Shown here: piece after piece, positions 1,247 to 55,597 of the stretch
Layout: each line of letters starts with the position of its first letter
Numbering within the stretch: position 1 is the stretch's first letter
Assembly: GCA_964537895.1 (NCBI GenBank)
Contig: CAZIDK010000003.1
Coordinates: forward strand, 1,171-65,170
DNA: 64,000 nucleotides
Source of the DNA: an uncultured Gammaproteobacteria bacterium
Lineage (GTDB): Bacteria; Patescibacteriota; Microgenomatia; Levybacterales; UBA12049
Direction of reading: 5' to 3'
Translations under genes and position numbers: made by a program
Notes under the pieces: generated by a model
Database searches by the model: none
What the model was told of the DNA's origin: nothing
The model's input: the letters and a program-made list of their open reading frames with translations, nothing else

Positions 1247-1876
1247 CTAGAGATTCCTGTTTCTTATCGTAACCGAGGTCTGAAACGGGACGCTTGCCTT
1301 TTTTTCTGCAAAATTACCTGGATTATTGTCGGATAGGGTCAGATTTATTCCAATCGTAGGGGCTTGGCCAAAATTAGTCTGCGTACAGGTAAAAGAGCAC
1401 AAAACAAGCGAAACGGCTGAGGTGTCTATAAGAGATGCGCCGTTTGAGGCAATCGTTGAACCATTACAGGAAAATATTGTCTGACCGCTGTCAAATGAAG
1501 TTATTTTTATATACTGATAGGCAATTGGAGCAGGAGTAGGTGAAGGAGAGGGAGGAATTGCTTGGGTACAATTAGTTTTGTAAAAAACGCCGTCCGTACT
1601 CACACCGTTAAAGTTTTGAGCATAAATAATCATTTTTGACATTTGCGTAATTGCATCGTTGCCGTTTTGCCTAACACTATCCAAAACATTAGATTTACTT
1701 CCTCCGCGCAAGGAAGAAATAAGAATACCGGCTACGATAACACCAACAACAACCACAATTGCCATAACTGCCAAAAGTTCTACCAATGTATAACCCTTCT
1801 CGGAATTGAAAATTGAAAATTGCCCGCCCCGCTTCACTTGGCGAGGCCGGGGAAAATTGAAAATTCGTTTTTTCAT
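1247..1876 (-). CDS. prepilin-type N-terminal cleavage/methylation domain protein (pilin-like, 'pseudopilin'); the leader peptide contains an in-frame repeat-element insertion
   Basis: Has the G|YTLVELLAVMAIVVVVGVI class III signal. Unusually long leader MKKRIFNFPRPRQVKRGGQFSIFNSEKG. PSPSPTPAP linker further in. Confidence 0.75.
   Translation of the reverse strand: MKKRIFNFPRPRQVKRGGQFSIFNSEKGYTLVELLAVMAIVVVVGVIVAGILISSLRGGSKSNVLDSVRQNGNDAITQMSKMIIYAQNFNGVSTDGVFYKTNCTQAIPPSPSPTPAPIAYQYIKITSFDSGQTIFSCNGSTIASNGASLIDTSAVSLVLCSFTCTQTNFGQAPTIGINLTLSDNNPGNFAEKKASVPFQTSVTIRNRNL
1803..1867. repeat. GC-rich palindromic element (core CCCGCCCCGCTTCACTTGGCGAGGCCGGGG) flanked by GAAAATTGAAAATT repeats, inserted in frame in the pilin leader
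   Basis: Near-identical copies at 6280-6338 and 37868-37985; all are translated in the same orientation. Confidence 0.7.
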
Positions 1877-2406
1877 GGTACTACAACATTACTATTAAGA
1901 TTAGACAAACACGAATTAAGCTTAACATTATGGCAATAGACATTGCTTGGGTCTGTACACTTACCATCAGACCAGGAAACTATTACCGTAACGCCAATGC
2001 TTTCATTGGAGCAAGAAACATCAGAACCTTGAGCAATATCCACCTCGCGCACAAAAATTCCGTAGTTTTGTCCGCAAGATGTTGCAGAACTCAAACTACA
2101 GGAACCGGTTGAAGAACCAAGAATACAAGGAGCCGTATCTCCCTGGGCAAGACAATACCTGCGGGCATTATATGCAGAAAATGTTCCCCAACTGGACTGG
2201 CTTATTTGACGCATAACTTCTATTCCTTGTTGGGCGTATTGAGTCGCCTGATTCTGATTTTTTGTATATTGAGTGTTATTAAGAGCCGAAATAACAGCCA
2301 CCGCTATGGCGGATAAAACAAGAACCGCCGCTCCTAAAGCAACTAAAGTTTCGATTAATGTTTGGCCTTTTTCTGTCATAGTCATATTATTTAATATTTC
2401 CCTCAT
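1873..2406 (-). CDS. pilin-like protein with prepilin N-terminal motif (GQTLIETLVAL)
   Basis: Class III signal peptide motif, hydrophobic N-terminal helix, Cys-rich C-terminal half. Overlaps its neighbours by 4 and 20 nt. Confidence 0.75.
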   Translation of the reverse strand: MREILNNMTMTEKGQTLIETLVALGAAVLVLSAIAVAVISALNNTQYTKNQNQATQYAQQGIEVMRQISQSSWGTFSAYNARRYCLAQGDTAPCILGSSTGSCSLSSATSCGQNYGIFVREVDIAQGSDVSCSNESIGVTVIVSWSDGKCTDPSNVYCHNVKLNSCLSNLNSNVVVP

Positions 2407-2875
2407 TGTCTATTTTTATTGTTTTTGCTTGACCGTATGCTGTCAGAACTATATTTCCCCCACCTTGTACGCCGCTGGTAATAACCGGAAAGAAAATAGA
2501 CGTAGTGGTTGTTTGTCCGGAAGCAAGGTTAAATTTAATATTTCCATTATCCGGCAGTGTTATTGTTTGAATCAAATAAGTTCCCAGACAAACGGCGCTT
2601 AAGCTGTACGTTGTGTCGGAAAGAATGTCTACCCGATATCCGCTAAGCGCCTCATTTGAGCACTGGTTTGGTTTTACCTGGGAACTCGCGCTGGATTTGG
2701 CCAAATTTAAAGTTGACGCTAAACTTGCACCCGCAGTTTGAAGCGATTGAGCTCTGCTGTAATTAACAAATGATGCAATACCGATTGTCGAAAGAATTGA
2801 AATTACCGTAAAAACAATAATCAGTTCAAGAAACGTAAATCCTGAAGATAAACTTAATCTTTCTTTTATGTGCAT
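2387..2875 (-). CDS. pilin-like protein (GFTFLELIIV); close paralog of the N-terminal half of 3427..4227
   Basis: Prepilin motif. About 365 bp (2441-2805) is near-identical to 3718-4082. Confidence 0.75.
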   Translation of the reverse strand: MHIKERLSLSSGFTFLELIIVFTVISILSTIGIASFVNYSRAQSLQTAGASLASTLNLAKSSASSQVKPNQCSNEALSGYRVDILSDTTYSLSAVCLGTYLIQTITLPDNGNIKFNLASGQTTTTSIFFPVITSGVQGGGNIVLTAYGQAKTIKIDNEGNIK

Positions 2876-2959: not shown

Positions 2960-3433
2960 CTACAACGTAACCCCTAAGCCTGCTGGATTAAGGGAAGTAT
3001 CACTTAGTGTATTGGCAGGACTCTCTATTACCGTTCCACAGTTTCCTGCATTCCAATACGGATTGTTTGTTCCTGAAGCATTTTTCCAGTAAACCCTGTT
3101 TCCTGTAACTGAATGTCCGGAACATGTACCGGTTGACTGATTCCAGATATACATACCAACATTAGAGTTTGTTCTTTGACCTTGGTAGATTATATTATTC
3201 TCAATCTTGCTGTTTGTTCCTCCCCCGGCTCCCGAGACCGTTACCGTTGTGCCTCCCGAATTTGCCTCATCCGTATCTTTTACTCCGTTTCTGTTTGAAT
3301 CTATTATATATACGTTGCCGTTTATTGTATAGGTTGCGGGGATTGACGTTGGGGTAGGGTAGGGCCAACAGGTGTTGCAGTTGATGCAGGCGTTGATGTA
3401 GTAATACAAACTTCGCCGCTGCACACCTAACAT
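2960..3433 (-). CDS. Cys/Pro-Thr-rich, beta-helix-like repeat domain ORF with no signal of its own; probably the frameshifted C-terminal continuation of pilin 3427..4227
   Basis: Its frame opens only 7 codons before its ATG and lies -1 relative to the upstream pilin's stop. It begins CINCNTCWPYPTPTSIP, continuing the Cys/PT-rich tail of the upstream protein. Repeats such as NNIIYQGQRTNSNVGMYIW and NRVYWKNASGTNNPYW look like parallel beta-helix turns. Confidence 0.45.
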   Translation of the reverse strand: MLGVQRRSLYYYINACINCNTCWPYPTPTSIPATYTINGNVYIIDSNRNGVKDTDEANSGGTTVTVSGAGGGTNSKIENNIIYQGQRTNSNVGMYIWNQSTGTCSGHSVTGNRVYWKNASGTNNPYWNAGNCGTVIESPANTLSDTSLNPAGLGVTL

Positions 3434-4227
3434 CCCGAGCCTGTGCAGCTTTGACTAAACGAGCTTGGGGTACAGGCTCCTCTACCTGTGTAATAATTGT
3501 AGGTGCAGGTTTGCAAGCCCGTTCCGCACTGAACACTGCAGGAACCGCAGGAAGCGCCGGTATTGCAGATTGGTGTAGGCGTTGGGGTTGGAGACGGAGT
3601 CGGTATCGTAGTTGGAGGCGGGGTTGGAGCAGGGGTAGGGGTATTTACGATATTTGTTTTCCCTAAGGTTATAATGCCTTGCGGATTAACTGTTATTGTT
3701 TTTGTTTGATCATGCCCTGTCAGGACTATATTTCCCCCACCTTGTACGCCGCTGGTAATAACCGGAAAGAAAACAAAAGTAGTGGTTGTTTGTCCGGAAG
3801 CAAGGTTAAATTTAATATTTCCATTATCCGGCAGTGTTATTGTTTGAATCAAATAAGTTCCCAGACAAACGGCGCTTAAGCTGTACGTTGTGTCGGAAAG
3901 AATGTCTACCCGATATCCGCTAAGCGCCTCATTTGAGCACTGGTTTGGTTTTACCTGGGAACTCGCGCTGGATTTGGCCAAATTTAAAGTTGACGCTAAA
4001 CTTGCGGCCGCAGTTTGAAGCGATTGAGCTCTACTGTAATTAACAAATGATACAATGCCTATGGTCGAAAGAATTGAAATAACAGAAAAAACTATTATTA
4101 ACTCTAGAAGAGTAAATCCTTCACTTTTTATTAATCTCGGAAAGTGAAGGGTAAACCCTCTATTGCTGAGCTGTTGAATTGCTGAATTGTTGAAATTAGT
4201 TTTCATAGCAATGTAATAATTTAACAA
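3427..4227 (-). CDS. pilin-like protein with a C-terminal PT-rich linker and Cys-rich module (tip-adhesin-like pilin)
   Basis: GFTLLELIIV prepilin motif, then TPTPAPTPPPTTIPTPSPTPTPTP, then CxxC-rich C-terminus. N-terminal 170 aa are a near-duplicate of 2387..2875. Confidence 0.7.
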   Translation of the reverse strand: MLNYYIAMKTNFNNSAIQQLSNRGFTLHFPRLIKSEGFTLLELIIVFSVISILSTIGIVSFVNYSRAQSLQTAAASLASTLNLAKSSASSQVKPNQCSNEALSGYRVDILSDTTYSLSAVCLGTYLIQTITLPDNGNIKFNLASGQTTTTFVFFPVITSGVQGGGNIVLTGHDQTKTITVNPQGIITLGKTNIVNTPTPAPTPPPTTIPTPSPTPTPTPICNTGASCGSCSVQCGTGLQTCTYNYYTGRGACTPSSFSQSCTGSGC

Positions 4228-4236
4228 TGTTTTCGC

Positions 4237-4701
4237 TTACGGGTTTTGTACGGTATAAGACCAATTGGCTGTACCATTACACGGTGATACGTTTGCCGCA
4301 TCTTTTTGACTATCATTTGTGTTTTCCAAACAAGCAATTATCGAATATGTGGCGCCTGTAGAAGAAAAAGTATAACTTCCTCCTAAAGCATCGCATGGAA
4401 TCTTTTGCATATACGTTGTTGTGTTATATGTAAAAGGTAACCCGCAAGTTGGTAAGGACAGCGGATAACTGCTATTGTCTGCTCTGTAAATTTCGAGGGC
4501 AGATTGTATTTGCCTTAAATCTGATTTTTTTTGCGCATCCCTTGCCCTTTGCCTTACGCCTATAAAATTGACCATAAGAAGAGTTGCCAAAACGCCAATA
4601 ATAGCAACAACTATAAGAAGCTCTATAAGCGTAAAACCTTTTTTAAAATTCTGAATTTTGTCCTGAGCTTGTCGAATGGATGAATTATAAATTATTTTCA
4701 T
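4237..4701 (-). CDS. GspG/PulG-like pilin (major pseudopilin-type)
   Basis: KKGFTLIELLIVVAIIGVLA, with the downstream motif LRQIQSALEIYRADNSSYP typical of GspG/ComGC-like pilins. Confidence 0.8.
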   Translation of the reverse strand: MKIIYNSSIRQAQDKIQNFKKGFTLIELLIVVAIIGVLATLLMVNFIGVRQRARDAQKKSDLRQIQSALEIYRADNSSYPLSLPTCGLPFTYNTTTYMQKIPCDALGGSYTFSSTGATYSIIACLENTNDSQKDAANVSPCNGTANWSYTVQNP

Positions 4702-5234
4702 GGTGTGACATTTGGAGTAGATACTCCAAAATTACAAGTTCCTCCGCAAGCGTTAAAAGAAATACCGTTTATTGTTAGACTGGAACAGGCATTTCCACTG
4801 TTACACGCCCCTGGATCGCTACTGCCTCTATCCAGAGAGGCATAAAGATAATAAGATTGTCCAGTAGAGTAGTAAACGTAATTTTTAGAAGCTGTCGGGT
4901 CTTTAGGCAAAAGATTCATGTATGGCTGCCACGATTTCCCCCAATCAATAACTGTTGAACCGGGCGGAACAGTTATTCTGTAAAGCGGTGAGCTTACAGA
5001 AGACAATGGATATTTACCATTATCTTGATAATAGGCCTCTAAGGTTTTTTGCACCTGGGATAAATCCGATTTCCTTCTTGAATCATTTGCCTTTTGAAAT
5101 TGAGCAACAGGATTAAGGGCAACTATTGAGCCCGCAGCCAAGATGGATAATATACCGACAACAACTATTAGTTCTATAAGGGTAAAACCCTTGCTCCGAT
5201 TTGAAATTCTTTTAATCATTTTTATTGTGTACAT
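4698..5234 (-). CDS. GspG-like pilin paralog
   Basis: SKGFTLIELIVVVGILSILA, then LSQVQKTLEAYYQDNGKYP. Confidence 0.8.
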   Translation of the reverse strand: MYTIKMIKRISNRSKGFTLIELIVVVGILSILAAGSIVALNPVAQFQKANDSRRKSDLSQVQKTLEAYYQDNGKYPLSSVSSPLYRITVPPGSTVIDWGKSWQPYMNLLPKDPTASKNYVYYSTGQSYYLYASLDRGSSDPGACNSGNACSSLTINGISFNACGGTCNFGVSTPNVTP

Positions 5235-6091
5235 AAGTTACCGCTGCAAGTTGTAGCTCCCGGTCCGGAATAACAAGTTAGGGTCCCTCCGTATATTGTA
5301 CACTGGTTAGATGTTACACTGTTACAGAGTCCGGCGCTGACCGCAAAGTAATTCGGACTGCAATTAAACGGCGTAGGCGTAGGCGTAGGCGTAGGCGTTG
5401 GGGTAGGAATTCCGCTTCCTGTTGGGGTAGGGATAGGGGGGGTTGGCGTTGGGGTAGGTGTTGGAACAGGCGTTGCGAATAAAGGAGCTGGCAATGAGTT
5501 TGCGGATATGTAAGCGCAATCTACTTTTCCCGATAGCACGCAATAATTATAACCTGAACTTTGATAATCTACCGGCAAACAGTTAGATAGCTCTGTTAAA
5601 GGACAGGAGGTTTGCACGTCTTGGGCTGAAGATAATTTAGCAAATAGCACGTTCCACTGCGGACATTGAGTTGTATCTGTTTGGTAAAGATATGACGGAT
5701 TAGAGCCATTTGAAAAATCCGGATCTTGAGGAACTTTTTGCATATACACTATTGAACCGCTGCTAAACGGAGCTCCCATTGTTAACGAAATAGGATAACA
5801 GTTTTTATCACTATAGTAAGCATCAAGAGAGTTTCTTATTTGGAATACATCATGCTGACGCTGTGCATCTCTTGCTTTCTGGAGCTGCCTTATCGGATTA
5901 ATAGTCACTATTAGAAAGGTGATAAGCACAGACAATATAATAATTACAACTACTAATTCTATTAGGGTAAACCCAAAAAAATTATTATTTTTGGAATTAA
6001 TAAATCTCCATAAAAGAGGGCTAAAATTGTACCTAATATTAAAAAGGGGCCAAAAGGAATTGTGTCTTTTATAGACCTTTTTTTTCGCCAT
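5222..6091 (-). CDS. pilin-like protein with a long leader, GspG-like N-domain, long PT-repeat linker and Cys-rich C-terminal module
   Basis: FGFTLIELVVVIIILSVL; (TP)n linker TPVPTPTPTPTPPIPTPTGSGIPTPTPTPTPTPTP; C-terminal CxxC-rich segment. The annotated start overlaps the peptidase gene by 130 nt, so the true start is uncertain. Confidence 0.65.
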   Translation of the reverse strand: MAKKKVYKRHNSFWPLFNIRYNFSPLLWRFINSKNNNFFGFTLIELVVVIIILSVLITFLIVTINPIRQLQKARDAQRQHDVFQIRNSLDAYYSDKNCYPISLTMGAPFSSGSIVYMQKVPQDPDFSNGSNPSYLYQTDTTQCPQWNVLFAKLSSAQDVQTSCPLTELSNCLPVDYQSSGYNYCVLSGKVDCAYISANSLPAPLFATPVPTPTPTPTPPIPTPTGSGIPTPTPTPTPTPTPFNCSPNYFAVSAGLCNSVTSNQCTIYGGTLTCYSGPGATTCSGNLCTQ

Positions 6092-6831
6092 ATAATTAGT
6101 ATGATACCTATAATTGCTCCTGTCAAGAAAGCTAAATACAAGGCTAAAATTATCTTCGGAAAACCCAGTATGAGCCCAAGCAAAAACGACAGTTTTACGT
6201 CTCCAAAACCCATACCTTTACCCTTGGTAATCAAGAATAGAATAAGAAAAAAAACGAATGCCCCAATAGCGGAAAAAACAAAATTGAAAATTGAAAATTG
6301 CCCGTCCCGAGTGAAATCGAGGGGAAAATTGAAAATTAAATAAATAGAGCTTACGATTATTGCCGGGAAGACTACTTTATCCGGAATAATTCCAAATTTT
6401 AAATCTTCAAAAAAAATAACAATAAAACTTGAGACAATAAATAAATAATAAACCAGGCTGATTAAAGATTGAAGATTAAAGATTAAAGAATTAGAAATTG
6501 ACCCGCCTGCAACGCTTTGCATAGCAATGCGGGCAGGAAATTGAAAATTAAGTCCATAAACAAACATAAATGTGGTTAAGAATAAAATTCCCGTAGAAAA
6601 CTCTATGATAGGGTAGAATATACCAATGGACTTATGACAGTATCTGCATTTTCCCTTCAGCATTAAAAACGAGAGTAGGGGAATGAGATCATACCAAGCA
6701 AGTTCTTTTTTACAAAACTCGCAATGTGATCTCCCTTTTGCAATTGTTTCCTTACGAGGCAATCTGTCGATAGCTACATTTAAAAAGGAGCCGATGAAAA
6801 CTCCTATTGCAAATATGAATAAAAACTCCAT
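5962..6831 (-). CDS. pilD: prepilin peptidase (A24 family, PilD/ComC-like) carrying two in-frame repeat-element insertions
   Basis: N-terminal CxxC..CxxC (CEFCKKELAWYDLIPLLS..GKCRYCHKSI), multiple TM helices and a GFGDVKL-type motif. Confidence 0.8.
   Translation of the reverse strand: MEFLFIFAIGVFIGSFLNVAIDRLPRKETIAKGRSHCEFCKKELAWYDLIPLLSFLMLKGKCRYCHKSIGIFYPIIEFSTGILFLTTFMFVYGLNFQFPARIAMQSVAGGSISNSLIFNLQSLISLVYYLFIVSSFIVIFFEDLKFGIIPDKVVFPAIIVSSIYLIFNFPLDFTRDGQFSIFNFVFSAIGAFVFFLILFLITKGKGMGFGDVKLSFLLGLILGFPKIILALYLAFLTGAIIGIILIIWRKKRSIKDTIPFGPFLILGTILALFYGDLLIPKIIIFLGLP
6280..6338. repeat. GAAAATTGAAAATT-flanked GC-core element (variant core CCCGTCCCGAGTGAAATCGAGGGG) in frame inside pilD
   Basis: Encodes FNFPLDFTRDGQFSIFNF. 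Same flanks and orientation as the copy at 1803-1867. Confidence 0.65.
6494..6552. repeat. second element type (core CCCGCCTGCAACGCTTTGCATAGCAATGCGGGCAGG, GAAATTGAAAATT flanks) in frame inside pilD, followed by AGATTAAAG x3
   Basis: Encodes LNFQFPARIAMQSVAGGSISNSLIFNLQSL. The same 36-nt core recurs in intergenic DNA at 43794-43829 and, as a variant, at 18113-18152. Confidence 0.65.
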
Positions 6832-6868
6832 TTTTATTAGTATAACAAATCAGAAGAAAAAATGAGGC

Positions 6869-7501
6869 TTATTTTGTGCACCAGTAGCATTGAGTTGTCC
6901 CGCCATTTCCTTCACAAGCTGTTTGAGGACTGGCAACTGGTGTTCCATCTTTATTATATATAGTAGCTAAAGATTTTCTCTGAGATGTCGATTGCGGCCT
7001 ATAACAGCCTGTAAGCGTATTGGCAGCCAGATCATAAGTAACAAATATTTCTTTCAAGATAGTTGTTGCAGTTTGAAAGCCGGATTTTAATTCTTTTTCA
7101 TTAACAAGTGCTGTCGTACAGGTATTAAGAGGGGTATCGTTTAAGGAAATATTCGGATTGGTTGCTGCGCTTGGGGCCACGCCTCCATTACATGCTGATC
7201 CGCCATTAGCAATGGTATCCCATGGAAAGGTATTACGCGTTGTGTAATATCTTACATTAGCATTAAGATACTCAACTAAAGCATTTTTTGTGTTTGCATC
7301 CTGCGCTTTTTTAAGCTGTTCAAAAGGATCAATTGTTGCAACGAGTGCTGCTGCCAAAACGCCGAGGATTCCGATAACAACCAGAAGTTCGATGAGGGTA
7401 AAGCCTGCGGTCTTTTTTGATAATCCTAATAATTTCTTTAACTTCTCTATCAATTTTTTCATGTCTATATCAAATGTAAACATTTTTAAATTCCTTGTCA
7501 A
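6869..7501 (-). CDS. type IV pilin, major-pilin-like; the likely true start is Met14 at 7462 (MKKLIEKLKKLLGLSKKTAG|FTLIELLVV)
   Basis: Canonical G|FTLIELL cleavage/methylation site and hydrophobic helix. Sits between pilC and pilD. Confidence 0.8.
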   Translation of the reverse strand: MTRNLKMFTFDIDMKKLIEKLKKLLGLSKKTAGFTLIELLVVIGILGVLAAALVATIDPFEQLKKAQDANTKNALVEYLNANVRYYTTRNTFPWDTIANGGSACNGGVAPSAATNPNISLNDTPLNTCTTALVNEKELKSGFQTATTILKEIFVTYDLAANTLTGCYRPQSTSQRKSLATIYNKDGTPVASPQTACEGNGGTTQCYWCTK

Positions 7502-7522
7502 GTACCAATCTGAAGCTAAATT

Positions 7523-8728
7523 TTACTGTATTGACGATATCAAACTGTAAATCGGCGTAATAACGGAAATTATTAAAAAAGCAACGCCAATGCCCAAAAC
7601 AACCATAATAAAAGGCTCCATTGCCGTTGTTAAGGTTTTAACTGTTTGATCAACATCTCTTTCGAAATATTCCGAGGCTTTTGCCAAAGATTCATCTACT
7701 TTTCCGGTCTGCTCTCCGATTTTTACAAGCTGGATAAGGATTGACGGAAAAAGGGGATAAACAGACATTGCGTCTCCTATCGTAACGCCTTTTTCTACCT
7801 GCTTGGAAACGTCTTTAATCGCATTTCTATAATGTATGTTTCCGGCCGTATCGGCGGTTTGCAACAGGGCATCAACAACCAGGGTTCCTGTTCCCACCAA
7901 AAGACCAAAGGTTCTTGAGAATTCGGCCAGTATTGTCTGTCTTATAAGTTTTCCAAAAACCGGAAGTTTTAAAATTAAACTATCTGTTATAAGCTGTCCC
8001 TCAATTGTTTTGTGCCAACGTCTAAATAAGACTACCCCTCCCACAAGCAGTATTAACATGATTGGCCAAAAAGTTTGAATAAAATCAGAAAATCCTATTA
8101 CTATTTGTGTTGGGAGGGGAAGGGGGACATTAAGATTTTGGTACAAAACCGTAAGCTGGGGAATAACAAAAATCATCATAATAAACATAACTACAACCAT
8201 AAGAATTATTACTATGACAGGGTACATAAGCGCGGATTTTATCGTGCCTTTTAGCTTTGCCTCTTTTTCAAGATTATCGGCAAGTCTTACGAGAACCTTA
8301 TCCAAGAGCCCTGACGCTTCTCCCGCTTTAATAAGGGAAACATAGATAGTCGAAAAAACAGCCGGATATTTTGCTATCGAAGAAGAAAAAGGCTTACCCT
8401 CTTCGACATCGTTAATAATACTGTTTACTACTTCCTGCATGGCCGCGCTTTGCACTTGATCTTTTAAAATTGCTAAGGCCCGCATTAGCGTAAGACCGGA
8501 AGAAAGCATTGAGGAAAGCTGTCTTGTAAAAATGATTAGGTCTGTCGACTTTACCTTGCTAAACATCGGCAAAATTTTAGATATGGGGTTTTCCTGTTCT
8601 TTTAGAATATGAATAGGCATCAGGTCTTTACTGCGGAGATATAAAGCCGCAGCGTTTATATCGTTAGCGTCAATTAAACCCTGTTCTATTTTACCCGTCT
8701 TTGTTGCGGCTTTATAACGAAGTTTCAT
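7523..8728 (-). CDS. pilC: type IV pilus / T2SS platform protein, GspF/PilC family
   Basis: 401 aa, two T2SSF-type repeats, three TM segments. Adjacent to pilT and pilB. Confidence 0.88.
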   Translation of the reverse strand: MKLRYKAATKTGKIEQGLIDANDINAAALYLRSKDLMPIHILKEQENPISKILPMFSKVKSTDLIIFTRQLSSMLSSGLTLMRALAILKDQVQSAAMQEVVNSIINDVEEGKPFSSSIAKYPAVFSTIYVSLIKAGEASGLLDKVLVRLADNLEKEAKLKGTIKSALMYPVIVIILMVVVMFIMMIFVIPQLTVLYQNLNVPLPLPTQIVIGFSDFIQTFWPIMLILLVGGVVLFRRWHKTIEGQLITDSLILKLPVFGKLIRQTILAEFSRTFGLLVGTGTLVVDALLQTADTAGNIHYRNAIKDVSKQVEKGVTIGDAMSVYPLFPSILIQLVKIGEQTGKVDESLAKASEYFERDVDQTVKTLTTAMEPFIMVVLGIGVAFLIISVITPIYSLISSIQ

Positions 8729-12304: not shown

Positions 12305-12601
12305 ATGAGTCAAACAGAAATAGGCGCACCAACTACGCCAACAGAAGCTAGGGAAACGCAGAGCCCCGAACGACGTCTAGTCTATGGGATCATGAGAAGA
12401 ATAGATAGGAGAGTAGAAAGAACTCTTGCCAATCCAAACTTAACACCCGATCAAATGCAAGAGCTTCTTCTACTTGCTAATCTTACGAAACTTGCCTTGG
12501 AATTAAGATGTCTAATGCCAGCAGTAAGATTTGGCGAAGAACTTGTTGAGCTATCCGATCCCTTAATGATTCCTGAAGCAACTCCCACAGAGCTAGGATA
12601 A
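12305..12601 (+). CDS. hypothetical protein; GC-rich orphan
   Basis: 98-aa ORF starting 9 nt after the holB stop. Markedly higher GC than the flanks. No motifs. Confidence 0.35.
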   Translation: MSQTEIGAPTTPTEARETQSPERRLVYGIMRRIDRRVERTLANPNLTPDQMQELLLLANLTKLALELRCLMPAVRFGEELVELSDPLMIPEATPTELG

Positions 12602-12602
12602 C

Positions 12603-12900
12603 CTCGGGGAAAATTTGAGTTTGAATAAAATGTTTCCACGTATCGATACATCACAACAAAACATTATTACTGTAAGTATACTAGTATATTAGTAATTAGT
12701 TCGACGGAAATAAATCTCAAACTCAGAAAACTAAATAACACAGGGGTCAAAAAAAATTGTGGGGAAAATTTGGGGTTGAATAAAATGTTTTCACGTATCG
12801 ATACATCACTACAAAGCTTTTAGGGGTTCAACCCCTAAAATAGATTGATAATTCAACAAGAACCGAGTAAGTGAAAAATTAAACTGGAGGGGAAAATTTG
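12603..12900. repeat. cluster of interspersed repeats: GGGGAAAATTTG(A/G)GTTGAATAAAATG units, palindromes GTATCGATAC and TATACTAGTATA, REP-like GGGGTTCAACCCC
   Basis: Units at 12605, 12763 and 12892. The block 12630-12695 is about 85% identical to the reverse complement of 54790-54870 and 55640-55720. Confidence 0.7.
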
Positions 12901-12926
12901 GGGTTGAGATTTTTACTTAAAACCGT

Positions 12927-13172
12927 TTATTTTCTGTTTCGGTCTTCAATTTGACGCAATTTACTACCAACAACAAACCCAAAACCCAAAGCAAGTCCCC
13001 ACGACCCAACAAACACAACAGCATCTTCTACGCTATGTATTCCCTTATCAGCTGCGCTTTTCCCTACAATTGCACTCGCTATAGCACTAACACCCGATAC
13101 AACTATAACAGCTTCGTCTCTTTTTATGACCTCCGTTATCCTATGTCTTAGTCCTGGGTTTCTTTCGCTCAT
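12927..13172 (-). CDS. small hydrophobic hypothetical protein
   Basis: 81-aa ORF with two hydrophobic segments, inside the repeat island. Confidence 0.3.
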   Translation of the reverse strand: MSERNPGLRHRITEVIKRDEAVIVVSGVSAIASAIVGKSAADKGIHSVEDAVVFVGSWGLALGFGFVVGSKLRQIEDRNRK

Positions 13173-13256
13173 AAACGGAATTATAGCATGAGGATTTTCT
13201 AAAGCAAATTGGGTGGAAAATTTGGATTTGCTCGCACCGACCCCTGGGGTTGAAAG

Positions 13257-13847
13257 CTAGTCTTCGAAAACTAACTCTTTTACTTGAACTGCTTCTGCTT
13301 CCGAAATGTCATATTCAGTAAATTGTTTATAATCTTTTGCCGGATTATTCGCAGCAAAATAATTAAGTATGTACGAAGAATCTACTAGGTCATCTTTCTT
13401 ACCATCAATATAAGCTGTGTAGCTTGACCAAGGATAAAGCGCAAGCTCAACCCCAGGGGTTGAAATTGGAATCGGATTTCGGTGTATATAGCGGGATACT
13501 TGTAGGAGATACTCATCTGAATCTATTAATTTTGCCTTAAAGCGGCCTTGGAAAAGACTTCCTACTTCATTATATTTAATATTAAAATATTTCGCAAAAC
13601 TGGTCGCCAATCTTAGCATAAAAAACGTGATAGGTAAGTCTGTGTCTTGCCTAAGAAGAAAATGAAAATGATTTGGCATTAAACAATATCCCAAAACGGT
13701 TACTCCAAATTTATCTTTATATTCTCTCGCTCGTTCCAAAAACCTCTTGTAATCTCTATTCTGAAGAAAAATATTTTGCTTTCTATTACCTCTGTTGTAA
13801 ACATGATAATAAGAGTCCTTTCGAAAATATCTAGGAGGAGTAGCCAT
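13257..13847 (-). CDS. HUH/Y1 tyrosine transposase, IS200/IS605-TnpA or REP-associated (RAYT)-like; the ORF is open to 14009 but Met55 at 13847 is the more likely start
   Basis: YHVYNRGNRKQNIF, then the HuH motif LMPNHFHFLL, then catalytic Tyr context SRYIHRNP. GGGGTTGA/TCAACCCC palindromes flank it at 13239-13252 and 13877-13891, and one lies inside at 13447-13461. Confidence 0.6.
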   Translation of the reverse strand: MATPPRYFRKDSYYHVYNRGNRKQNIFLQNRDYKRFLERAREYKDKFGVTVLGYCLMPNHFHFLLRQDTDLPITFFMLRLATSFAKYFNIKYNEVGSLFQGRFKAKLIDSDEYLLQVSRYIHRNPIPISTPGVELALYPWSSYTAYIDGKKDDLVDSSYILNYFAANNPAKDYKQFTEYDISEAEAVQVKELVFED

Positions 13848-14009
13848 GTTCTTAGTAAAACACGAAAGTCTTTCAGCGTCAACCCCAGGGGTTGACGCAT
13901 GGAGATAACTCTTTAAGACGTTTGACGTTTTGGAAAGTTTGGGAGAAAAAGCAGGTTGGCAGGTCGAAGATGCCCTGTGGGTAAAAATTTGGTTTTGAAA
14001 TTTTTGCAC

Positions 14010-14047: not shown

Positions 14048-14350
14048 ATGAATACTGCGGTAATCAATATCAAAACTCAACCTGAAACGAAAATAAAAGC
14101 TCAACTGGTCGCAAAAGAACTAGGGCTTAATTTGAGTTCTATTATTAATGCATACCTTACTCAGTTAATAAAAACTAAAACTGTTGCTTTTAGCGTAAGA
14201 GAAGAACCTACTAAATATCTTTTAGAAATGCTTAAGCAGTCACGAAAAGAGATTAAGACCGGAAAAATATCTCGAAGTTTTAGTAAGGCAAGCGATGCAA
14301 TTGGGTATTTGGACAAAATGATTAAAAATGAAAAAAATCAACAGAATTGA
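14048..14350 (+). CDS. dinJ: DinJ/RelB-family antitoxin (type II toxin-antitoxin system)
   Basis: N-terminal ribbon-helix-helix pattern INIKTQPETKIKAQLVAKELGLNLSSIINAYLTQLIKTKTVAF. Overlaps the toxin gene by 23 nt. Confidence 0.7.
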   Translation: MNTAVINIKTQPETKIKAQLVAKELGLNLSSIINAYLTQLIKTKTVAFSVREEPTKYLLEMLKQSRKEIKTGKISRSFSKASDAIGYLDKMIKNEKNQQN

Positions 14351-14609
14351 TTTTTCCGGCCCTTTTGATAAACAACTTAAAAAGGCGCCGCTTAATATAA
14401 AGATTGCTTTCAAGAATAGGCTTACAATATTTATAAAAGACCCATTTAATTCTCAACTAAGAAACCACCAGCTTACAGGAAAACTCAAAAATTACAGAAG
14501 CATAAACATAACAGGCGACTGGCGCGCTTTGTATTCAACAAATGAAATTGATAAAGAAAACGTTGTAATATTCGAAATCCTCGGAACCCACAGTCAGTTA
14601 TATAAATAA
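14328..14609 (+). CDS. yafQ: YafQ/RelE-family toxin (mRNA interferase)
   Basis: 93 aa. HQLTGKLKNYRSINITGDWRALY...VVIFEILGTHSQLY matches the RelE/YafQ fold signature. Confidence 0.7.
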   Translation: MKKINRIDFSGPFDKQLKKAPLNIKIAFKNRLTIFIKDPFNSQLRNHQLTGKLKNYRSINITGDWRALYSTNEIDKENVVIFEILGTHSQLYK

Positions 14610-18112: not shown

Positions 18113-18152
18113 CCCGCCTGCAACGCTTGATGCGTAGCATCTGCGGGCAGGG
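18113..18152. repeat. variant of the CCCGCCTGCAACGC...GCGGGCAGG element, intergenic between gyrB and alkA
   Basis: Same ends as the copy at 6502-6537; the central segment differs. Confidence 0.5.
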
Positions 18153-19330: not shown

Positions 19331-21367
19331 ATGAACTTATCTTTTATTTTGGACCACAAACTTATTGTTTCCGTTGCCGCGGGAATCCTCTCCATTTTAT
19401 ACGCAGTTTTCTTAAGCTACAGAGTTTTGTCACATGAACGGGGTGACAAAAAAATGAATGATATTTCCGACGCAATAGAAGAAGGCGCAGTTGCCTACAT
19501 GAAAAGACAATATACCGTAGTTGCCGCAATCGGTGCCATCGTTTTTGCAATTTTATATTTTGTTTTTAATCCAATAACTGCAATTGGATTTGCAGTCGGC
19601 GCTGTTTTTAGTACCATCGCAGGCGTTATCGGAATGTCTATTGCCGTTAGAAGTAACATAAGAACCGCACAAGCAGCTAAAAAAGGCCTTGCTGCGGCAT
19701 TTAATTTGGCTTTCCAGGGCGGAGCGGTAACAGGGCTGATGGTTGCAGGACTTGCTCTTTTAGCAGTTTCCGGATTTTATTTTGTTTTAGAAAGATATGC
19801 CCCGGGAAATCTCCAACCGTTAATTGCCTTAGGTTTCGGAGGAAGTTTGATTTCTGTTTTTGCCAGACTTGGAGGGGGAATCTTTACAAAATCTGCCGAT
19901 GTAGGAACAGATATGGTTGGAAAACTGGAGAAAGGAATTCCGGAAGACGATCCAAGAAATCCCGGAGTTATTGCGGATTTGGTAGGGGATAATGTCGGAG
20001 ATGATGCCGGAATGGCAGCGGACTTATTTGAAACTTATGTAATTACGGCAGTCGCCGCTATGATTTTAGGAAATTTAACTTTTCCGGGAAACCAAGCAGT
20101 TTTATTTTACCCGATGTTAATCGGAGCAATTTCTATTGTTGCCTCGATTATCGGAACTTGGTTTGTAAGACTGCGCGGAACAGGAATAATGAACGCTTTG
20201 TATCAAGGTCTAATTGCCTCAATACTTGTTTCCTTGGTAGGATTTTATGCAATAACCGCCGCTGTTTTTCCAAATGGAATCGGAAATATACCAACGCTAA
20301 ATCTTTTTTATGCGTCTATGATTGGCCTGATTGTTACAATCGGAATGGTTGTAATTACGGAATATTTTACTTCCAAAAAATTCTCACCCGTTAGAACAAT
20401 CGCCAACGCATCTTCCACAGGACACGGAACAAATGTAATCGCGGGTTTGGCAGTTTCCATGAAATCCACAATGGCTCCGATTCTTTTAATTGCAGGAGCA
20501 ATTTTAGTTTCGTTTAATCTGGCAGGACTTTATGGAATCGCAATTGCCGCAATGAGCATGTTATCTTTGGCAGGAATTATTGTTGCAATCGATGCTTTCG
20601 GACCAATAACCGATAACGCAGGCGGAATTGCCCAAATGGCCGGTATGGATAAAAAAGTTAGAGACATTACAGATCCTTTGGACGCAGTCGGAAATACGAC
20701 CAAGGCAATTACTAAAGCTTATGCAATCGGGTCTGCGGGACTTGCAGCATTAGTTTTATTTGCAAGCTACACACAAGAATTAAGCAGAAATGGAAGGGTA
20801 TTGGATATGGCAGCATTTTCACTTTCCGATCCAAAAGTAATTATCGGATTATTTATCGGCGGTGCATTACCATACCTTTTTGCAGCCCTTGCAATGGAAG
20901 CTGTTGGAAAAGCCAGCGTTGCAGTTGTTGATGAAGTCAGAAGACAATTCAGGGAAATCAAAGGTCTTATGGAAGGCAAAGCAAAACCCGAATATGCAAA
21001 AGCAGTTGATATTGTAACTCGCGCCGCAATCAAAGAAATGATTTTACCAACTGCAATTACGCTTTTAGCGCCAATTGTTGTTGGTTTTGGTTTAGGCCCA
21101 ACAGCCTTGGGGGGGATGTTAGTCGGAAGCATTGTCACAGGTCTATTCTTAGGAATTTCTATGACTACCGGCGGAGCAGCCTGGGATAACACCAAAAAAT
21201 ATATTGAAGAAGGAAATTTGGGCGGCAAAGGAAGCTTTGCGCACCAAGCGGCAGTTACGGGAGATACTGTTGGCGACCCTTACAAAGATACCGCTGGGCC
21301 TGCAATCAATCCAATGATTAAGGTTTTGAACATTGTAGCTCTCTTAATCGCAGGCTTCCTTGTTTAG
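19331..21367 (+). CDS. hppA: membrane-bound proton-translocating pyrophosphatase; the ORF is open from TTG at 19295 but ATG 19331 (MNLSFIL) is the more likely start
   Basis: Hallmarks [20 protein letters not shown] and [21 protein letters not shown], with about 15 TM helices. Confidence 0.93.
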
Positions 21368-21448
21368 ATACTAGTTACTAGATACTAGAAACTAGTTGAT
21401 AATTTAGGAGAACTAATAACTAATCAACTAGCAACTAATCACTAATTT

Positions 21449-23917: not shown

Positions 23918-23998
23918 AAGATAGCGTATAGGAAATAGCGTATAGGGTATAGTTAACCAGACACTAAACGCTAGACGCTAATAACTAATCACTGATTT

Positions 23999-29079: not shown

Positions 29080-30057
29080 CTACTTATTACCAGAATGAAA
29101 TGATTTGTGGACGTCGTGAAGCTGTTTATTGGTGATGTGAGTGTAAATTTGCGTTGTGGCTATATTCTTGTGCCCCAGCATTTCCTGAACACTTCTAATA
29201 TCCGCTCCGTTTGTCAGAAGGTCTGTTGCGAATGAGTGGCGGAATGTGTGAACGGTTGCGTCAACCGGAATTCTGGCACTCCTTACATATTTTTTTACCA
29301 AGCGCTCAACGCTTCGGGCTGTTAACCTCATTTTTTCCCCTCCGTTTTCTTGGATAATTGCTCCGGAATACCTGATAAAAAGAGGTTTAAAACTATCCTC
29401 GCGTTTATCAAGATAACGCTTTATCCATTCCGCAGCCCTGCCGGAAACAAAAACCAGCCTTGATTTCCCGCCTTTTCCAATAACCCCAAATTCTCGCCTT
29501 TCCAAATTTATTCTATCCCTGTTTAATCCGACAAGTTCCGAAACCCTAAGCCCGGTGGAAAAGAGAAGCTCCATTATCGCTCTGTCCCTTAAGCCTTCCT
29601 CTTTTGACGTATCTGTCGCTGTTACAAGCCTGTCAACTTGTTCTTTTTCTAAAAATTTTAGACTGCGGCTTTCGGTTCTTGGAAGATCAATTTTTGAAGG
29701 CTCCAGGGTTTCGTGGTCGTTTTTTATTAAAAATCTAAGGAATGACCGGAGGGCAATAACGTAATAATTCTGCGTAACACGCATTAAGGTTAAGCCTTTA
29801 GCATCGGCCCTATTTGCCAAAAAAACTCTATATTTTCTAACCGTGGCCAAATCTAAAGTTTCTAAAGTTTTTCCGTGTGAGGTAGTGGAGAACCATTGAT
29901 TAAAAACATCCAAATAATGTCTGTAATCCCGAATAGTAAGCTTAGAACAATTTTTTTCTATTTCAAGATATTCCAAAAATTCGTCTATGAACCCCGAAAG
30001 AGCAGTATTTTCTTCCATAAATCTAAAAATTAACCGTTTTGGTAAAGCTAGCTTCAT
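29080..30057 (-). CDS. tyrosine recombinase XerC/XerD-like
   Basis: C-terminal HTFRHSFATDLLTNGADIRSVQEMLGHKNIATTQIYTHI with the catalytic R..H..R..Y. Confidence 0.85.
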   Translation of the reverse strand: MKLALPKRLIFRFMEENTALSGFIDEFLEYLEIEKNCSKLTIRDYRHYLDVFNQWFSTTSHGKTLETLDLATVRKYRVFLANRADAKGLTLMRVTQNYYVIALRSFLRFLIKNDHETLEPSKIDLPRTESRSLKFLEKEQVDRLVTATDTSKEEGLRDRAIMELLFSTGLRVSELVGLNRDRINLERREFGVIGKGGKSRLVFVSGRAAEWIKRYLDKREDSFKPLFIRYSGAIIQENGGEKMRLTARSVERLVKKYVRSARIPVDATVHTFRHSFATDLLTNGADIRSVQEMLGHKNIATTQIYTHITNKQLHDVHKSFHSGNK

Positions 30058-32485: not shown

Positions 32486-33125
32486 AACCCTCTGATATCA
32501 ATTTTCTTCGGAGAAGTGAAAAATTATTAAAATTTAGCCTCAATTAGCCTCAAAAAATTCATCTGCATTAGTCCTGTAGTAGGGAAGACTATAAAGCTGT
32601 AAAAAACGGGGACTTAATCTGAAACATAGCGTACCAAGAGTTGAAATGTTTTTAAATATATGCTGAAAAATAAGACGCCGGAAGAGGTCTTCTCCCAGGC
32701 ATTGAGCCTAGCTGGCGTCGTAAAAGTATTATTGTGCGACATAATCAATTACCCTCGCCCAGCTGCTTATAACACTAAATTTTCTCCCTAACACCCGCCG
32801 GGGTACAATATTAGTTATTAGCTACTAGATATTAGTTAGTAGTTAGTGCTCTCTTCAAATAAACCGCTAAATTATCTAACTACTGCGAGTCGTACAAGAC
32901 CCTCTCTCCACCGAGCCGGCACGTAGTTGAATTTAGCCCGTTATTATAAGCTAATCGCGTAATTTTAGCCTCAAAAATGTTGAGTATAGCAATTATACAT
33001 ACTAATCCTTAGAAAGAGAACGCGCCATAAGAGGCATTCGTATTTTTTTCATTAGAAACAGTTTACGATCCGCCTTTAGGCGGGAGTAGTTACTGTTTCT
33101 TATGTCCGCCGATGATTCGCTCTTT

Positions 33126-33176
33126 GCGCCGTATACGAATAGTACTGAAAAGGCGCAAAGTAAGATTAGGCGGACC
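33126..33176. repeat. nested-hairpin element GCGCCGTATACGAATA..AAAGGCGCAAAGTAAGATTAGGCGG inside a roughly 1-kb noncoding region
   Basis: Related to the copies at 36915-36980 and 43765-43868. Perfect 9-bp stem CTTTGCGCC/GGCGCAAAG. Confidence 0.5.
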
Positions 33177-35063: not shown

Positions 35064-35211
35064 CATACGTAGCAACTAGCCACTAGAACTTAGCAACTAG
35101 TTGTTAACTGAATGCTAAATGCTGAAGGCTAGATGCTGATATTATACCTTTTCTACCTTGACTTTTGCAATTGATTTGTAGTAAAATTTTCCAATCGATT
35201 TTATCTCCTAA

Positions 35212-37299: not shown

Positions 37300-38091
37300 T
37301 TATTGGCTGATTACCTTACTCAATTCCCCAGGCAATGGAGACTCTAATAAGACTTGCTTATTGGTTATTGGGTGTATGAATGAAATTTTGTGTGCGTGCA
37401 AGAAAACGCGCTTGAGAATTTTTCTGTCCTGCCTTGAGGTTTTTCTTCCCGCATATAAAAAGTCAGCAAAAATAGGATGACTAAAATACTTTAAGTGAAC
37501 TCTTATCTGATGCGTTCTTCCTGTTTCCGGATAAAGCTCCAGGAGGCTCATCGGCTCTTCTTTTTTTCCCGATACTAAATACTTAATACTTAATACTTTA
37601 TACTTCGTAACCGCTTCCCTACCGCCTGCCAAAACCCCAAACTTTTTTCTGTTCCAAGGCAGTCTTCCGACAGGAACATTTATTTCTCCTATCTCCGGCA
37701 CAACTTTCCCGTGGCAAAGCGCAAGATAAGTTTTTTTTATAACTCTTTCTTTAAACTGTTTTTGCAGATTTTCAAAAGCCGGAAGGGTTTTGGCAACAAG
37801 TAAAATTCCCGAAGTTTCTTTATCAAGCCTATGAACTATTCCGCTTCTTTTATAAAAATCCGACTCCTCGTCAATTCTGAATTCTGCCCGCCCCGCTTCG
37901 CTTGTCGAGGCTGGAGAACTCTGCCCGCCCCGCTTCGCTTGTCGAGGCCGGGGAACTCTGAATTTACTGTCCAGCCAATCCTGTACCGTTTCCTCCCCTA
38001 TCGTAGTATCGGAACGATTAACAGTTATTCCCGCGGGCTTATCCAAAACCAAAACGTCATCGTCCTCGTAAATTATTTTAATATTACTCAT
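37300..38091 (-). CDS. RluA-family pseudouridine synthase with an in-frame tandem repeat-element insertion
   Basis: HRLDKETSGILLVAKT catalytic motif. The insert encodes RVPRPRQAKRGGQSSPASTSEAGRAEF just before the catalytic loop. Confidence 0.85.
   Translation of the reverse strand: MSNIKIIYEDDDVLVLDKPAGITVNRSDTTIGEETVQDWLDSKFRVPRPRQAKRGGQSSPASTSEAGRAEFRIDEESDFYKRSGIVHRLDKETSGILLVAKTLPAFENLQKQFKERVIKKTYLALCHGKVVPEIGEINVPVGRLPWNRKKFGVLAGGREAVTKYKVLSIKYLVSGKKEEPMSLLELYPETGRTHQIRVHLKYFSHPIFADFLYAGRKTSRQDRKILKRVFLHAHKISFIHPITNKQVLLESPLPGELSKVISQ
37868..37985. repeat. two tandem copies of the GC-core element CTGCCCGCCCCGCTTCGCTTGTCGAGGC(C/T)GG(G/A)GAACT flanked by GAATT repeats, in frame inside rluA
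   Basis: Core is near-identical to 1818-1850. The copies are 40 nt apart, so they are read in two different frames. Confidence 0.7.
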
Positions 38092-43764: not shown

Positions 43765-43868
43765 CTCCGTGAGCCGTATTCGAATAAAATTGACCTGCCC
43801 GCATTGCTATGCAAAGCATTGCAGGCGGGAAAGGCGAACGGTAAGTTTAGTCGGATTCCCGTTTTTTG
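43765..43868. repeat. composite element: the CCGTATTCGAATA..AAAGGCGAACGGTAAG..T-run element with a nested CCTGCCCGCATTGCTATGCAAAGCATTGCAGGCGGG element inserted inside
   Basis: Outer part aligns with 36915-36980. Inner 36 nt (43794-43829) is the reverse complement of 6502-6537. Confidence 0.6.
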
Positions 43869-54407: not shown

Positions 54408-54752
54408 TTATATTTCCATTTTATCTTTTATTTTTTCAAGTCCGGCTTTAGTCATTTTCCCTTCTTTTATTAACTTTTTTATTCTTTCCTTATTACTCTC
54501 CGATAAATTGCTTTTTTCTTTTCTTGGGGTAAATCTGCCGGCAAATGTTTCCCTATCAATCCCCTTTTCTATGCTATCTATCCAGCCAAAACAAAGAGCT
54601 TCTTCAACCGCATCGTTATAGGAAATTGTTGGTTTTCCTGTTGTTTTCTTGTAATAGATAAGCCAAATCTCCTTTTCCTTATCGTAGTTTTTAGAAAACC
54701 ACTTTCTCCACTCTTTCCTATTTGTTACATAAAGAGTTTTTCCAATATTCAT
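54408..54752 (-). CDS. YdeI/OmpD-associated (OmdA) family protein
   Basis: W..W......EIWLIYYKK..GKPTISYNDAVEEALCFGWIDS, the family signature. Confidence 0.6.
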   Translation of the reverse strand: MNIGKTLYVTNRKEWRKWFSKNYDKEKEIWLIYYKKTTGKPTISYNDAVEEALCFGWIDSIEKGIDRETFAGRFTPRKEKSNLSESNKERIKKLIKEGKMTKAGLEKIKDKMEI

Positions 54753-54756
54753 AAAC

Positions 54757-55240: not shown

Positions 55241-55594
55241 CTATGAAACCATTATCTTATCGTCTGCTACCGAAGGAAATCTGATAGTTTGAACAACGAT
55301 TTCATCGCTCAAAACTTTTTTTATGCAAACTGTGATCTTTGGCGGAATAATTAAATAATCCCCCTCATTCATTTCTACTTCCTGTCCGTCGACCTCCCAA
55401 ATTCCCTTTCCATTCCAAATAATATCAAGTTTCGTTGAGGTCTTATTAAAATGGGGCTTGGATGAAAAAGATTTATCAAGCTTTGCTATTTTTATTTCTG
55501 CCCTATCATCTTTCGCTAAACCTTCCGGCATAAAACTTCCATAAATCCACCCGTTTCTTTCTTTTTCTTCGAATGCATTTCCTTTTTTATACAT
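55241..55594 (-). CDS. cupin-like small protein
   Basis: 117 aa with a beta-rich pattern including G.W.V.G.....EGDYLIIPP. Confidence 0.4.
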   Translation of the reverse strand: MYKKGNAFEEKERNGWIYGSFMPEGLAKDDRAEIKIAKLDKSFSSKPHFNKTSTKLDIIWNGKGIWEVDGQEVEMNEGDYLIIPPKITVCIKKVLSDEIVVQTIRFPSVADDKIMVS

Positions 55595-55597
55595 AAG

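Follow-up and report, generated by a model that had tools for sequence, protein, structure and literature searches.

Short GC-rich palindromes in a pilin leader and other genes of Patescibacteria: probable mobile repeat families associated with heptamer arrays

The window analysed here, a stretch of 64,000 nucleotides from contig CAZIDK010000003.1 (positions 1,171 to 65,170 of the forward strand; assembly GCA_964537895.1, placed by GTDB in the Levybacterales of the Patescibacteriota), harbors a 30-nt GC-rich imperfect palindrome within the leader region of a type IV (pseudo)pilin gene (1247..1876). This palindrome, denoted core in the following, and its counterparts at further sites very probably represent mobile, selfish-type repeat families inserted in frame. 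The favored explanation, which we consider probable as a whole, is that the cores are GC-rich imperfect palindromes of 21–39 nt which are non-autonomous, frame-neutral, largely free of stop codons, dispersed in Patescibacteria and translated, and which resemble repetitive extragenic palindromes (REPs), Rickettsia palindromic elements (RPEs) and small dispersed repeats (SDRs). The evidence consists of insertion polymorphism, exact boundaries, the absence of a target-site duplication, the breadth of occurrence within the candidate phyla radiation (CPR) and the coding context. The pilin gene and its insert comprise the following features:

1247..1876, minus strand: type IV (pseudo)pilin gene with a 28-residue leader containing the insert (open reading frame and translation, Pfam N_methyl, 120 orthologues)
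1803..1821, plus strand: left heptamer array GAATT (GAAAATT)2; the coding-strand unit AATTTTC gives the peptide FNFQFSI
1822..1851, plus strand: type-A core, 30 nt, GCCCGCCCCGCTTCACTTGGCGAGGCCGGG; minus-strand reading PRPRQVKRGG; exact 30-nt difference from the related locus L005
1852..1867, plus strand: right heptamer array (GAAAATT)2 CG

Positions 1803-1867 thus read GAATT(GAAAATT)2 GCCCGCCCCGCTTCACTTGGCGAGGCCGGG (GAAAATT)2 CG, and the product of the gene begins MKKRIFNFPRPRQVKRGGQFSIFNSEKG/YTLVELLAVMAIVVVVG, i.e. MKKRIFNFPRPRQVKRGGQFSIFNSEKG/YTLVELL, the slash denoting the cleavage site. An earlier note on this DNA had placed a GC-rich imperfect palindrome in frame in the leader, upstream of G/YTLVELL, and it is indeed seen at 1822-1851, positioned in frame, wholly inside the leader and 5′ of this motif. 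Pfam N_methyl matches residues 24–48 (E = 3.2e-5), and the features of class III prepilins are present, namely a leader ending in glycine, a hydrophobic N-methylation motif with glutamate at +5 and a gene for the prepilin peptidase PilD (5962..6831). The start codon, and hence the long leader, is supported by an overlap (ATGA) between the ATG of the pilin gene and the stop codon of the gene upstream. The gene belongs to a type IV pilus cluster encoding PilB, PilT, PilC and PilD and comprising some nine pilin-like genes. At the protein level, Patescibacteria provide the best matches, and the named ones include Levybacteria and Microgenomates. As the core lies upstream of the class III cleavage motif, it is reasonable to infer that it adds the residues PRPRQVKRGG to the signal peptide and that the co-encoded PilD should cut them off.

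The leader of a second pilin (4237..4701) contains a different core type at 4657-4680, read SIRQAQDK, with related CCCTTCGACAAGCTCAGGGCAAG copies in six further CPR loci; leaders of first-pilin orthologues show the SIRQAQDK type as well as others (PCLAGGRA, PAGRQGQ). Within the same cluster, a segment of 300 nt (2416-2715 and 3693-3992, in the pilin-like genes 2387..2875 and 3427..4227) is 97% identical between its two copies, suggesting recent duplication of the segment or gene conversion.

Comparison of the 120 pilin orthologues yields a series of leaders. One form, MKKRIFNSxxG/, has 11 residues (e.g. P0149, P0142, P0152), an array-only form reads MKKRIFNFQFSIFNSE(S)G/ (P0129, P0130), and the leader in the window equals the array form plus the ten residues PRPRQVKRGG. 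At the DNA level the orthologue in L005 (the gene of P0129) reads ATGAGAAAACG(AATTTTC)4AATTC without a core; in the window this array is interrupted between units 2 and 3 by exactly 30 nt. Two further type-A cores are located in rluA:

37300..38091, minus strand: RluA/RluD-family pseudouridine synthase gene with two cores (Pfam PF00849; PDB alignment; AlphaFold)
37572..37605, plus strand: core-less heptamer array (ATACTTA x4.9) within rluA, at a 7-residue gap relative to a PDB homologue
37868..37885, plus strand: heptamer units (AATTCTG type), left of the tandem cores
37886..37915, plus strand: type-A core, copy 1, read PASTSEAGRA
37916..37922, plus strand: single heptamer unit GAACTCT separating the cores and giving a tandem period of 37 nt
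37923..37952, plus strand: type-A core, copy 2, read PRPRQAKRGG
37953..37985, plus strand: heptamer units right of the tandem cores, then ordinary coding sequence

The window and three relatives all contain four CAGAATT units at this site and differ in their cores, with none in L193, one after unit 1 in L192, one after unit 2 in L191 (whose RluA protein is 89% identical to that of the window) and both in the window. These alleles differ in steps of exactly 30 nt, without duplication of a unit; the same array has been hit recurrently and independently. A model in which each insertion adds one heptamer, as a 7-bp target-site duplication or footprint, would explain the 37-nt period and was rejected, since filled and empty alleles are equal in their number of units. 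Where the segment from TVQDW to GIVHRLD could be delimited, it has 29 residues in 42 of 107 orthologues, and in the examples read these are encoded by heptamer arrays (e.g. KFRIQNSEFRID). Just 3′ of rluA, at 37151-37257, a 43-nt tandem repeat is present in 2.2 copies of 96% identity (GCACGTTCGATGCGACTCAGTACAAAAAATGCTGAGC..), with an inverted repeat in each unit.

The pilD gene carries two cores of other kinds:

5962..6831, minus strand: prepilin peptidase gene pilD with two cores, both outside conserved blocks (Pfam A24_N_bact at residues 9-89 and Peptidase_A24 at 130-243; alignment)
6279..6299, plus strand: heptamer array (AAAATTG x3), left of the 24-nt core
6300..6323, plus strand: 24-nt core GCCCGTCCCGAGTGAAATCGAGGG, peptide PLDFTRDG, of a different, degenerate family and without a stable hairpin
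6324..6338, plus strand: heptamer array, right of the 24-nt core
6460..6501, plus strand: heptamer arrays (GATTAAA and GAAATTG types), left of the type-B core
6502..6537, plus strand: type-B core, 36 nt, CCCGCCTGCAACGCTTTGCATAGCAATGCGGGCAGG, peptide PARIAMQSVAGG
6538..6552, plus strand: heptamer units, right of the type-B core

Among 25 aligned sequences the insert of the 24-nt core is found in the PilD of the window only; in two orthologues whose DNA was read, this site has arrays of other units and no core, (AATACTN)4 and (ATTCATA)5, and six of the aligned proteins carry other inserts there. The type-B core is identical in the 89%-identical relative L003, while L005 has a core-less AT-rich array instead. 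The region 4462-8331, which includes pilD with both cores, is matched base for base by the Logan assemblies SRR13723393 and SRR13723394. Two more copies, missed by the earlier note, are intergenic:

18113..18151, plus strand: type-B core, 39-nt variant, between gyrB and an HhH-GPD glycosylase gene
43794..43829, minus strand: type-B core, inverted, downstream of dnaB

The latter splits an intergenic motif of about 55 nt whose paralogues at 33120-33175 and 36918-36967 are uninterrupted, the filled minus the empty site amounting to 36–37 nt. No target-site duplication is found in pilin, in rluA or at 43794-43829 compared with the paralogous empty sites. The core-less alleles of pilin, pilD and rluA uphold the view of the earlier note that these segments were inserted and are not ancestral. 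Besides being split by a core, the ~55-nt motif (..CCGTATTCGAATAG..AAAGGCGAACGGTAAGATTAGGCGG) is conserved in three copies (33120-33175, 36918-36967 and 43763-43855), of which one is directly upstream of a LytR_C gene; it could represent a leader or RNA motif not described so far. Rfam gave no match at the cores or at this split motif.

These comparisons also define the unit. The element had been described as about 65 bp including its flanks, which has to be narrowed to the 30-nt core, as L005 has the array without the core and the flanks differ elsewhere. The GAAAATT flanks likewise prove to be a pre-existing heptamer array and not part of it, since in other genomes the flanking units vary from one copy to the next. 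The 14-nt flank by itself is not above chance, with 11 matches against 7.5 expected at two mismatches. In contrast, the 30-nt core occurs three times in the window at up to three mismatches and the 36-nt core twice, against 0.00 expected for each (shuffles for the former). The sites of the earlier note comprise three core types, of 30 nt (type A), 24 nt and 36 nt (type B). Homologous copies in the same frame had been claimed for three other genes, of which only two are found, pilD with two copies and rluA with its tandem pair. The rluA pair does share the 30-nt core, whereas the pilD cores of 24 and 36 nt belong to other families, and the common frame is contradicted by the two rluA readings, PRPRQAKRGG and PASTSEAGRA.

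Nor are such elements unusual for a CPR-like genome, as had been supposed. A type-A 25-mer (23 specified bases) is found at 65 loci in GTDB species-representative genomes of many CPR classes, with the labels Levy-, Kuenen-, Gottesman-, Falkow-, Portnoy- and Curtissbacteria, Parcubacteria and Microgenomates; a few metagenome-assembled genomes carry other, possibly unreliable labels. The set of type-A copies used below (n = 71) consists of 68 from species representatives and the three in the window. The type-B core is present in at least 120 metagenome contigs. The two types are seldom found in the same neighbourhood: 728 kb of type-B-selected loci contain no type-A-like copy at up to six mismatches, the only two matches (at seven) being type-B-like variants, and 478 kb of type-A-selected loci give only two type-B-like matches. 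A phage vector for type A was considered and rejected, as the core has no match in 2.9 million viral contigs.

Type-A cores end in GCCC and CGGG, type-B cores in CCCG and CAGG, and cores delimited by arrays have 21, 24 or 30 nt. Type B is 36 nt long in 90 copies, 39 nt in 23 and 37 or 38 nt in 11, so that 113 of the 124 lengths are multiples of three; type A is devoid of stop codons in all six frames, type B contains one in a single frame. The bases flanking type A are G at -1 (94%), G at +1 (96%) and A at +2 (82%), which defines an insertion site YWG^A (typically TTG^A) corresponding to the junction of GANNNTT units. By a strict criterion, 35 of the 71 copies are situated in heptamer arrays with the identical unit on both sides, the unit varying by locus (GAAAATT, GGAAATT, GATTTTT, GAGTTTT, GACTTTT, GATTCTT, GACATTT, GTAGGTT and others), while about 20 copies form the center of a larger GC palindrome (..CCGCCAG-core-GAGGCGG..). 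Type B is found nested near the apex of type B in L073, L113, L154 and L163, three deep in L113 and within an inverted copy in L163; GCTTTG^CGTAGC or an equivalent sequence marks the split in every case.

Type-B copies were also noticed in tRNA gene clusters, beside D-arm- or T-arm-like fragments (L085, L088, L108, L143, L144, L151, L167 and L172). Location of cores within tRNA genes was rejected, since ARAGORN finds the neighbouring intact tRNAs only and no extra one after removal of the core. The intergenic copies in the window were likewise rejected as intrinsic terminators, a consensus scan flagging neither.

The arrays are themselves a conspicuous feature. The window contains 11 arrays of period 7 with at least three units, against 0.45 expected, and none of periods 8–12; in 1.29 Mb of related loci 291 arrays of period 7 are found, 41 of period 8 and four of period 9. 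The majority of arrays lack a core. Lineages differ in the array unit at the rluA and pilD sites while the 21-nt (7-residue) period is kept, which indicates rapid turnover within arrays. Only one strand of an array has all three reading frames open. Bacteria are known to have an excess of heptameric simple sequence repeats, for which slippage of the polymerase has been suggested as the cause (PMC4692102). Four intergenic places in the window hold side-by-side pairs of different heptamer arrays (21365-21446, 23921-23980, 35070-35139 and 45188-45277), just 5′ of start codons or between genes, and the pair at 23921-23980 looks partly inverted.

About 90% of the type-A copies (64 of 71) are located within open reading frames of at least 120 codons. 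These copies occur in all three frames, with an orientation bias of 53:11 (the 53 reading CCCCGGCC...GGGCGGG). The arrays bring a TGA every seven bases on the strand of the core, so that selection against these TGA-bearing arrays accounts for the bias. For type B the use of frames is uneven (26, 17 and 2 copies). The 61 proteins hosting type A match 113 Pfam families, among them class I aminoacyl-tRNA synthetases, RecR, DnaK, GyrA, RpoB, SecA, GatB, PheS, phosphoglycerate kinase and EF-Tu-like GTPases. The cores are very likely plainly translated.

Superposition on protein domains is consistent with tolerated inserts. Relative to the solved pseudouridine synthase 11wx_A, RluA is longer by about 31 residues where the cores lie, and a 7-residue gap coincides with the core-less array 37572-37605 (eight extra query residues in total). 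In the AlphaFold model of RluA (42 sequences), which is well folded with a mean predicted local distance difference test score of 78.9, residues 47–72 comprising the insert score below 50; the insert is thus predicted to be disordered while the fold remains intact. In PilD one insert is positioned between the two Pfam domains and the other in a variable loop of Peptidase_A24.

In the mechanism proposed here each core would be added as an exact unit without target-site duplication. Type A would enter at YWG^A, and since this site recurs at every junction of a heptamer array, the arrays would act as landing pads; other palindromes would likewise accept cores close to their apex. Copies in the open orientation would be tolerated in genes and translated as 7–13 extra residues in loops, linkers and termini. 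Such tolerance would follow from lengths that are mostly multiples of three, from the near absence of stop codons and from arrays open on one strand. Most plausibly the enzymology involves single-stranded DNA, either through a Y1/HUH enzyme acting in trans or through template switching during replication, and between a trans-acting Y1-type enzyme and template switching the balance is roughly even. Exact units, absent duplication, the short site preferred by type A, the preference for arrays and apices, repeated independent hits on one array and the sharing of landing pads by many core families fit the handling of single-stranded DNA hairpins and also fit copy-choice template switching.

One gene of the Y1 type is present in the window:

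13257..13847, minus strand: Y1/HUH (IS200/RAYT-like) transposase gene with its own flanking palindromes (Pfam, NCBIfam, motifs)

Its product of 196 residues matches Pfam Y1_Tnp (E = 6e-14) and contains the motifs YHVYNRG, HFH and YIHRNP; the best NCBIfam model, REP-associated tyrosine transposase (RAYT), scores 49 bits against a cut-off of 80. The palindrome CAACCCCNGGGGTTG flanks the gene at 13238-13252 and 13880-13894, has an internal copy at 13448-13462 and is found nowhere else in the window. Homologues of the transposase occur in five core-bearing loci. A link between this transposase and the cores was nevertheless rejected, because the flanking palindromes are unrelated to the cores in the window and in the five other loci; the Y1 type is therefore a candidate class of mobilising enzyme that is not linked to the cores. 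Beside the IS200-like unit (13230-13900) four GGGGAAAATTTGGGGTTGA-like repeats are spaced by about 150 nt (12598-13231). A RelB/YafQ toxin-antitoxin pair adjoins the transposase gene (14048-14609), and a XerC/D-type tyrosine recombinase is encoded at 29080-30057. A repeat of about 170 nt (88-95% identical) at 54746-54915 and 55588-55756 is located upstream of the small genes 54408..54752 and 55241..55594, the latter cupin-like, and part of it resembles 12655-12696.

Several observations weigh against the explanation favored here. Support for the hairpin is modest: DNA-fold z scores are -0.9 and -2.0 for the 30-nt core of type A and -2.1 to -3.0 for the cores of 36 and 39 nt, and the 24-nt core, at +0.2, has no fold. 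Covariation is weak, as RNAalifold on 16 type-B variants finds three of 12 pairs doubly changed and an unfavourable covariation term of +0.31. The flanks of type B are AT-rich and weakly sequence-specific, and only about a quarter of its copies, judged by eye, are in arrays. Because the scans used exact patterns, ascertainment accounts for part of the near-invariance of the cores; positions left unconstrained in type A are also largely conserved. Gain and precise loss were polarised by the commonest state and not by a tree. The Y1 genes, in the window and in the five loci, are each flanked by their own palindromes, none of them core-like. Finally, translation of the cores and their removal with the leader are inferred from the sequence.

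The same elements might alternatively spread without any transposase, the nascent strand, while slippage-prone heptamer arrays or hairpins are replicated, switching to another locus with array and core via TTG / GA microhomology, copying the core and returning, i.e. by copy-choice gene conversion, a possible route to which we give the lesser credence. It accounts for exact boundaries without target-site duplication and for the strong preference for arrays and for the apices of palindromes, both of them known sites of polymerase stalling and slippage, and it agrees with the attribution of the bacterial excess of heptameric repeats to slippage (PMC4692102). Moreover, no cognate transposase was found in the window or in the other loci, and CPR genomes are small. 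However, the units differ between loci and thus leave only 2–4 nt of homology, identical cores in distant CPR classes still call for transfer of DNA between lineages, and the conserved G...GA boundary is not better explained than by a site-specific enzyme.

It is improbable that the cores are signals useful to the host, such as uptake sequences, protein-binding sites or hairpins stabilising or terminating RNA, and are kept by selection. Core sequences are much alike across distant lineages and both intergenic copies are located just 3′ of genes, gyrB and dnaB; known DNA-uptake sequences occur inside genes too. But the cross-scans of 728 and 478 kb found copies far more sparsely than known uptake sequences are distributed, the same sites, those in the pilin leader and in rluA, are taken by many unrelated core families according to lineage, presence and absence vary between close relatives, and neither intergenic copy was flagged by the terminator scan.

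Even less credible is a segment that escapes translation, with the flanking repeats serving as take-off and landing sites for ribosomal bypassing or with the RNA edited out. A GC-rich hairpin with identical codons on either side would suit such a scheme, yet skipped elements need no frame-neutrality, whereas the lengths are mostly multiples of three and reading frames stay open through 64 of the 71 type-A copies. There is no stop codon after the would-be take-off site, and the uneven frames of type B point to selection on the encoded peptide. That the segments are ancestral lineage-specific low-complexity sequence or an assembly artefact can practically be dismissed: variability is common in the leaders and loops of CPR proteins, but orthologues exist without the segment, identical strings of 30 and 36 nt recur in unrelated genes from many independent studies and assemblers, and the two Logan assemblies, which are independent, reproduce the pilD cores.

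Insertion of mobile cores in frame thus remains the preferred explanation. If it is correct, the CPR, the least understood of the major bacterial radiations, has selfish DNA of its own that lives mostly inside genes, and the alleles provide a natural series, namely no array, array, array with one core and array with two cores, for studying how 30 nt move without duplication and without an obvious enzyme. It would also join two old puzzles, the bacterial excess of heptanucleotide repeats and the nature of very small dispersed repeats. Near-identical cores in distant CPR lineages would mark exchange of DNA. In practical terms the inserts would inflate or fragment protein families, appear as recurrent CPR "motifs" such as SPASPSEAGRA and PRPRQAKRGG and could mislead alignments, phylogenies and structure predictions. 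A bolder extension, which we regard as doubtful, is that the smallest mobile DNA known forms a system spanning the whole phylum, in which frame-neutral hairpins of 21–39 nt home, with neither a dedicated transposase nor duplication, into single-stranded loops of slipped heptamer arrays or of other hairpins, and in which arrays and cores together continually add segments of 7 and 10–13 residues to essential proteins and signal peptides; such a system would explain part of the lineage-specific insertions in CPR proteins and would make pilin leaders hypervariable. A search of the full-text literature returned no description of such elements in CPR.

Among known systems, the RPEs of Rickettsia, which Ogata and colleagues reportedly described in 2000, were proposed as an analogy in the earlier note. 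The cores likewise lie in frame in unrelated genes and leave the reading frame open, and they are set apart by size, RPE-1 having about 100–150 bp compared with 21–39 nt for the core units. The analogy is apt inasmuch as RPE-4 and RPE-6 have already been classed with intragenic REP-type palindromes (Di Nocera et al. 2013, PMC3733652). These are located wholly inside open reading frames of unrelated genes, often of replication or repair, to which they add some tens of residues, and they are regarded as miniature mobile DNA (PMC3733652). Unlike them, the cores are for the most part a multiple of three in length, keep company with heptamer arrays and recur with the same sequence across many class-level lineages instead of in one species.

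REPs in general carry GTAG or CGTC as end tags, the CGTC class being without a dedicated transposase (PMC3733652). The cores resemble REPs as GC-rich imperfect palindromes of 20–40 nt with many dispersed copies. They differ in having neither tag at either end, in being mostly intragenic (about 90% for type A) where REPs are mainly extragenic, in occurring singly or as direct tandems and not as inverted dimers, and in that they do not flank the Y1 gene of the window or those of the five loci, in contrast to REPs and RAYTs. The IS200/IS605 group, with RAYT/REPIN (REP pairs with their transposase) and PATE (palindrome-associated transposable elements), combines hairpin recognition, a short motif and no target-site duplication; the cores share the last property and, for type A only, the motif, but they are unlike the palindromes flanking Y1 genes and consist of one hairpin instead of two ends. 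Miniature inverted-repeat transposable elements create a target-site duplication on insertion, whereas the cores do not.

The mobile GC clusters of yeast mitochondria and the "byp" elements of Magnusiomyces are GC-rich hairpins that invade AT-rich compact genomes including their protein genes, and ribosomal bypassing is known from T4 gene 60 and from the mitochondrial byp elements. These hairpins are organellar, and byps, being bypassed, need no frame-neutrality, whereas the cores are in frame and open, neither breaking the frame nor carrying a stop. Also among the closest systems are the SDRs of Nostoc and other cyanobacteria, which Elhai and colleagues are said to have described in 2008 as mobile elements of 21–27 nt with a shared hairpin, often in tandem heptameric repeats and nested in other small elements. 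The cores, of 21–39 nt, are seen in heptamer arrays and nested in one another. SDRs belong to another phylum and are not known to lie mainly in frame in housekeeping genes or to be shared across a phylum-level radiation. We know of no enzyme for SDRs, and they are to our knowledge the only precedent for the pairing of a core with a heptamer array.

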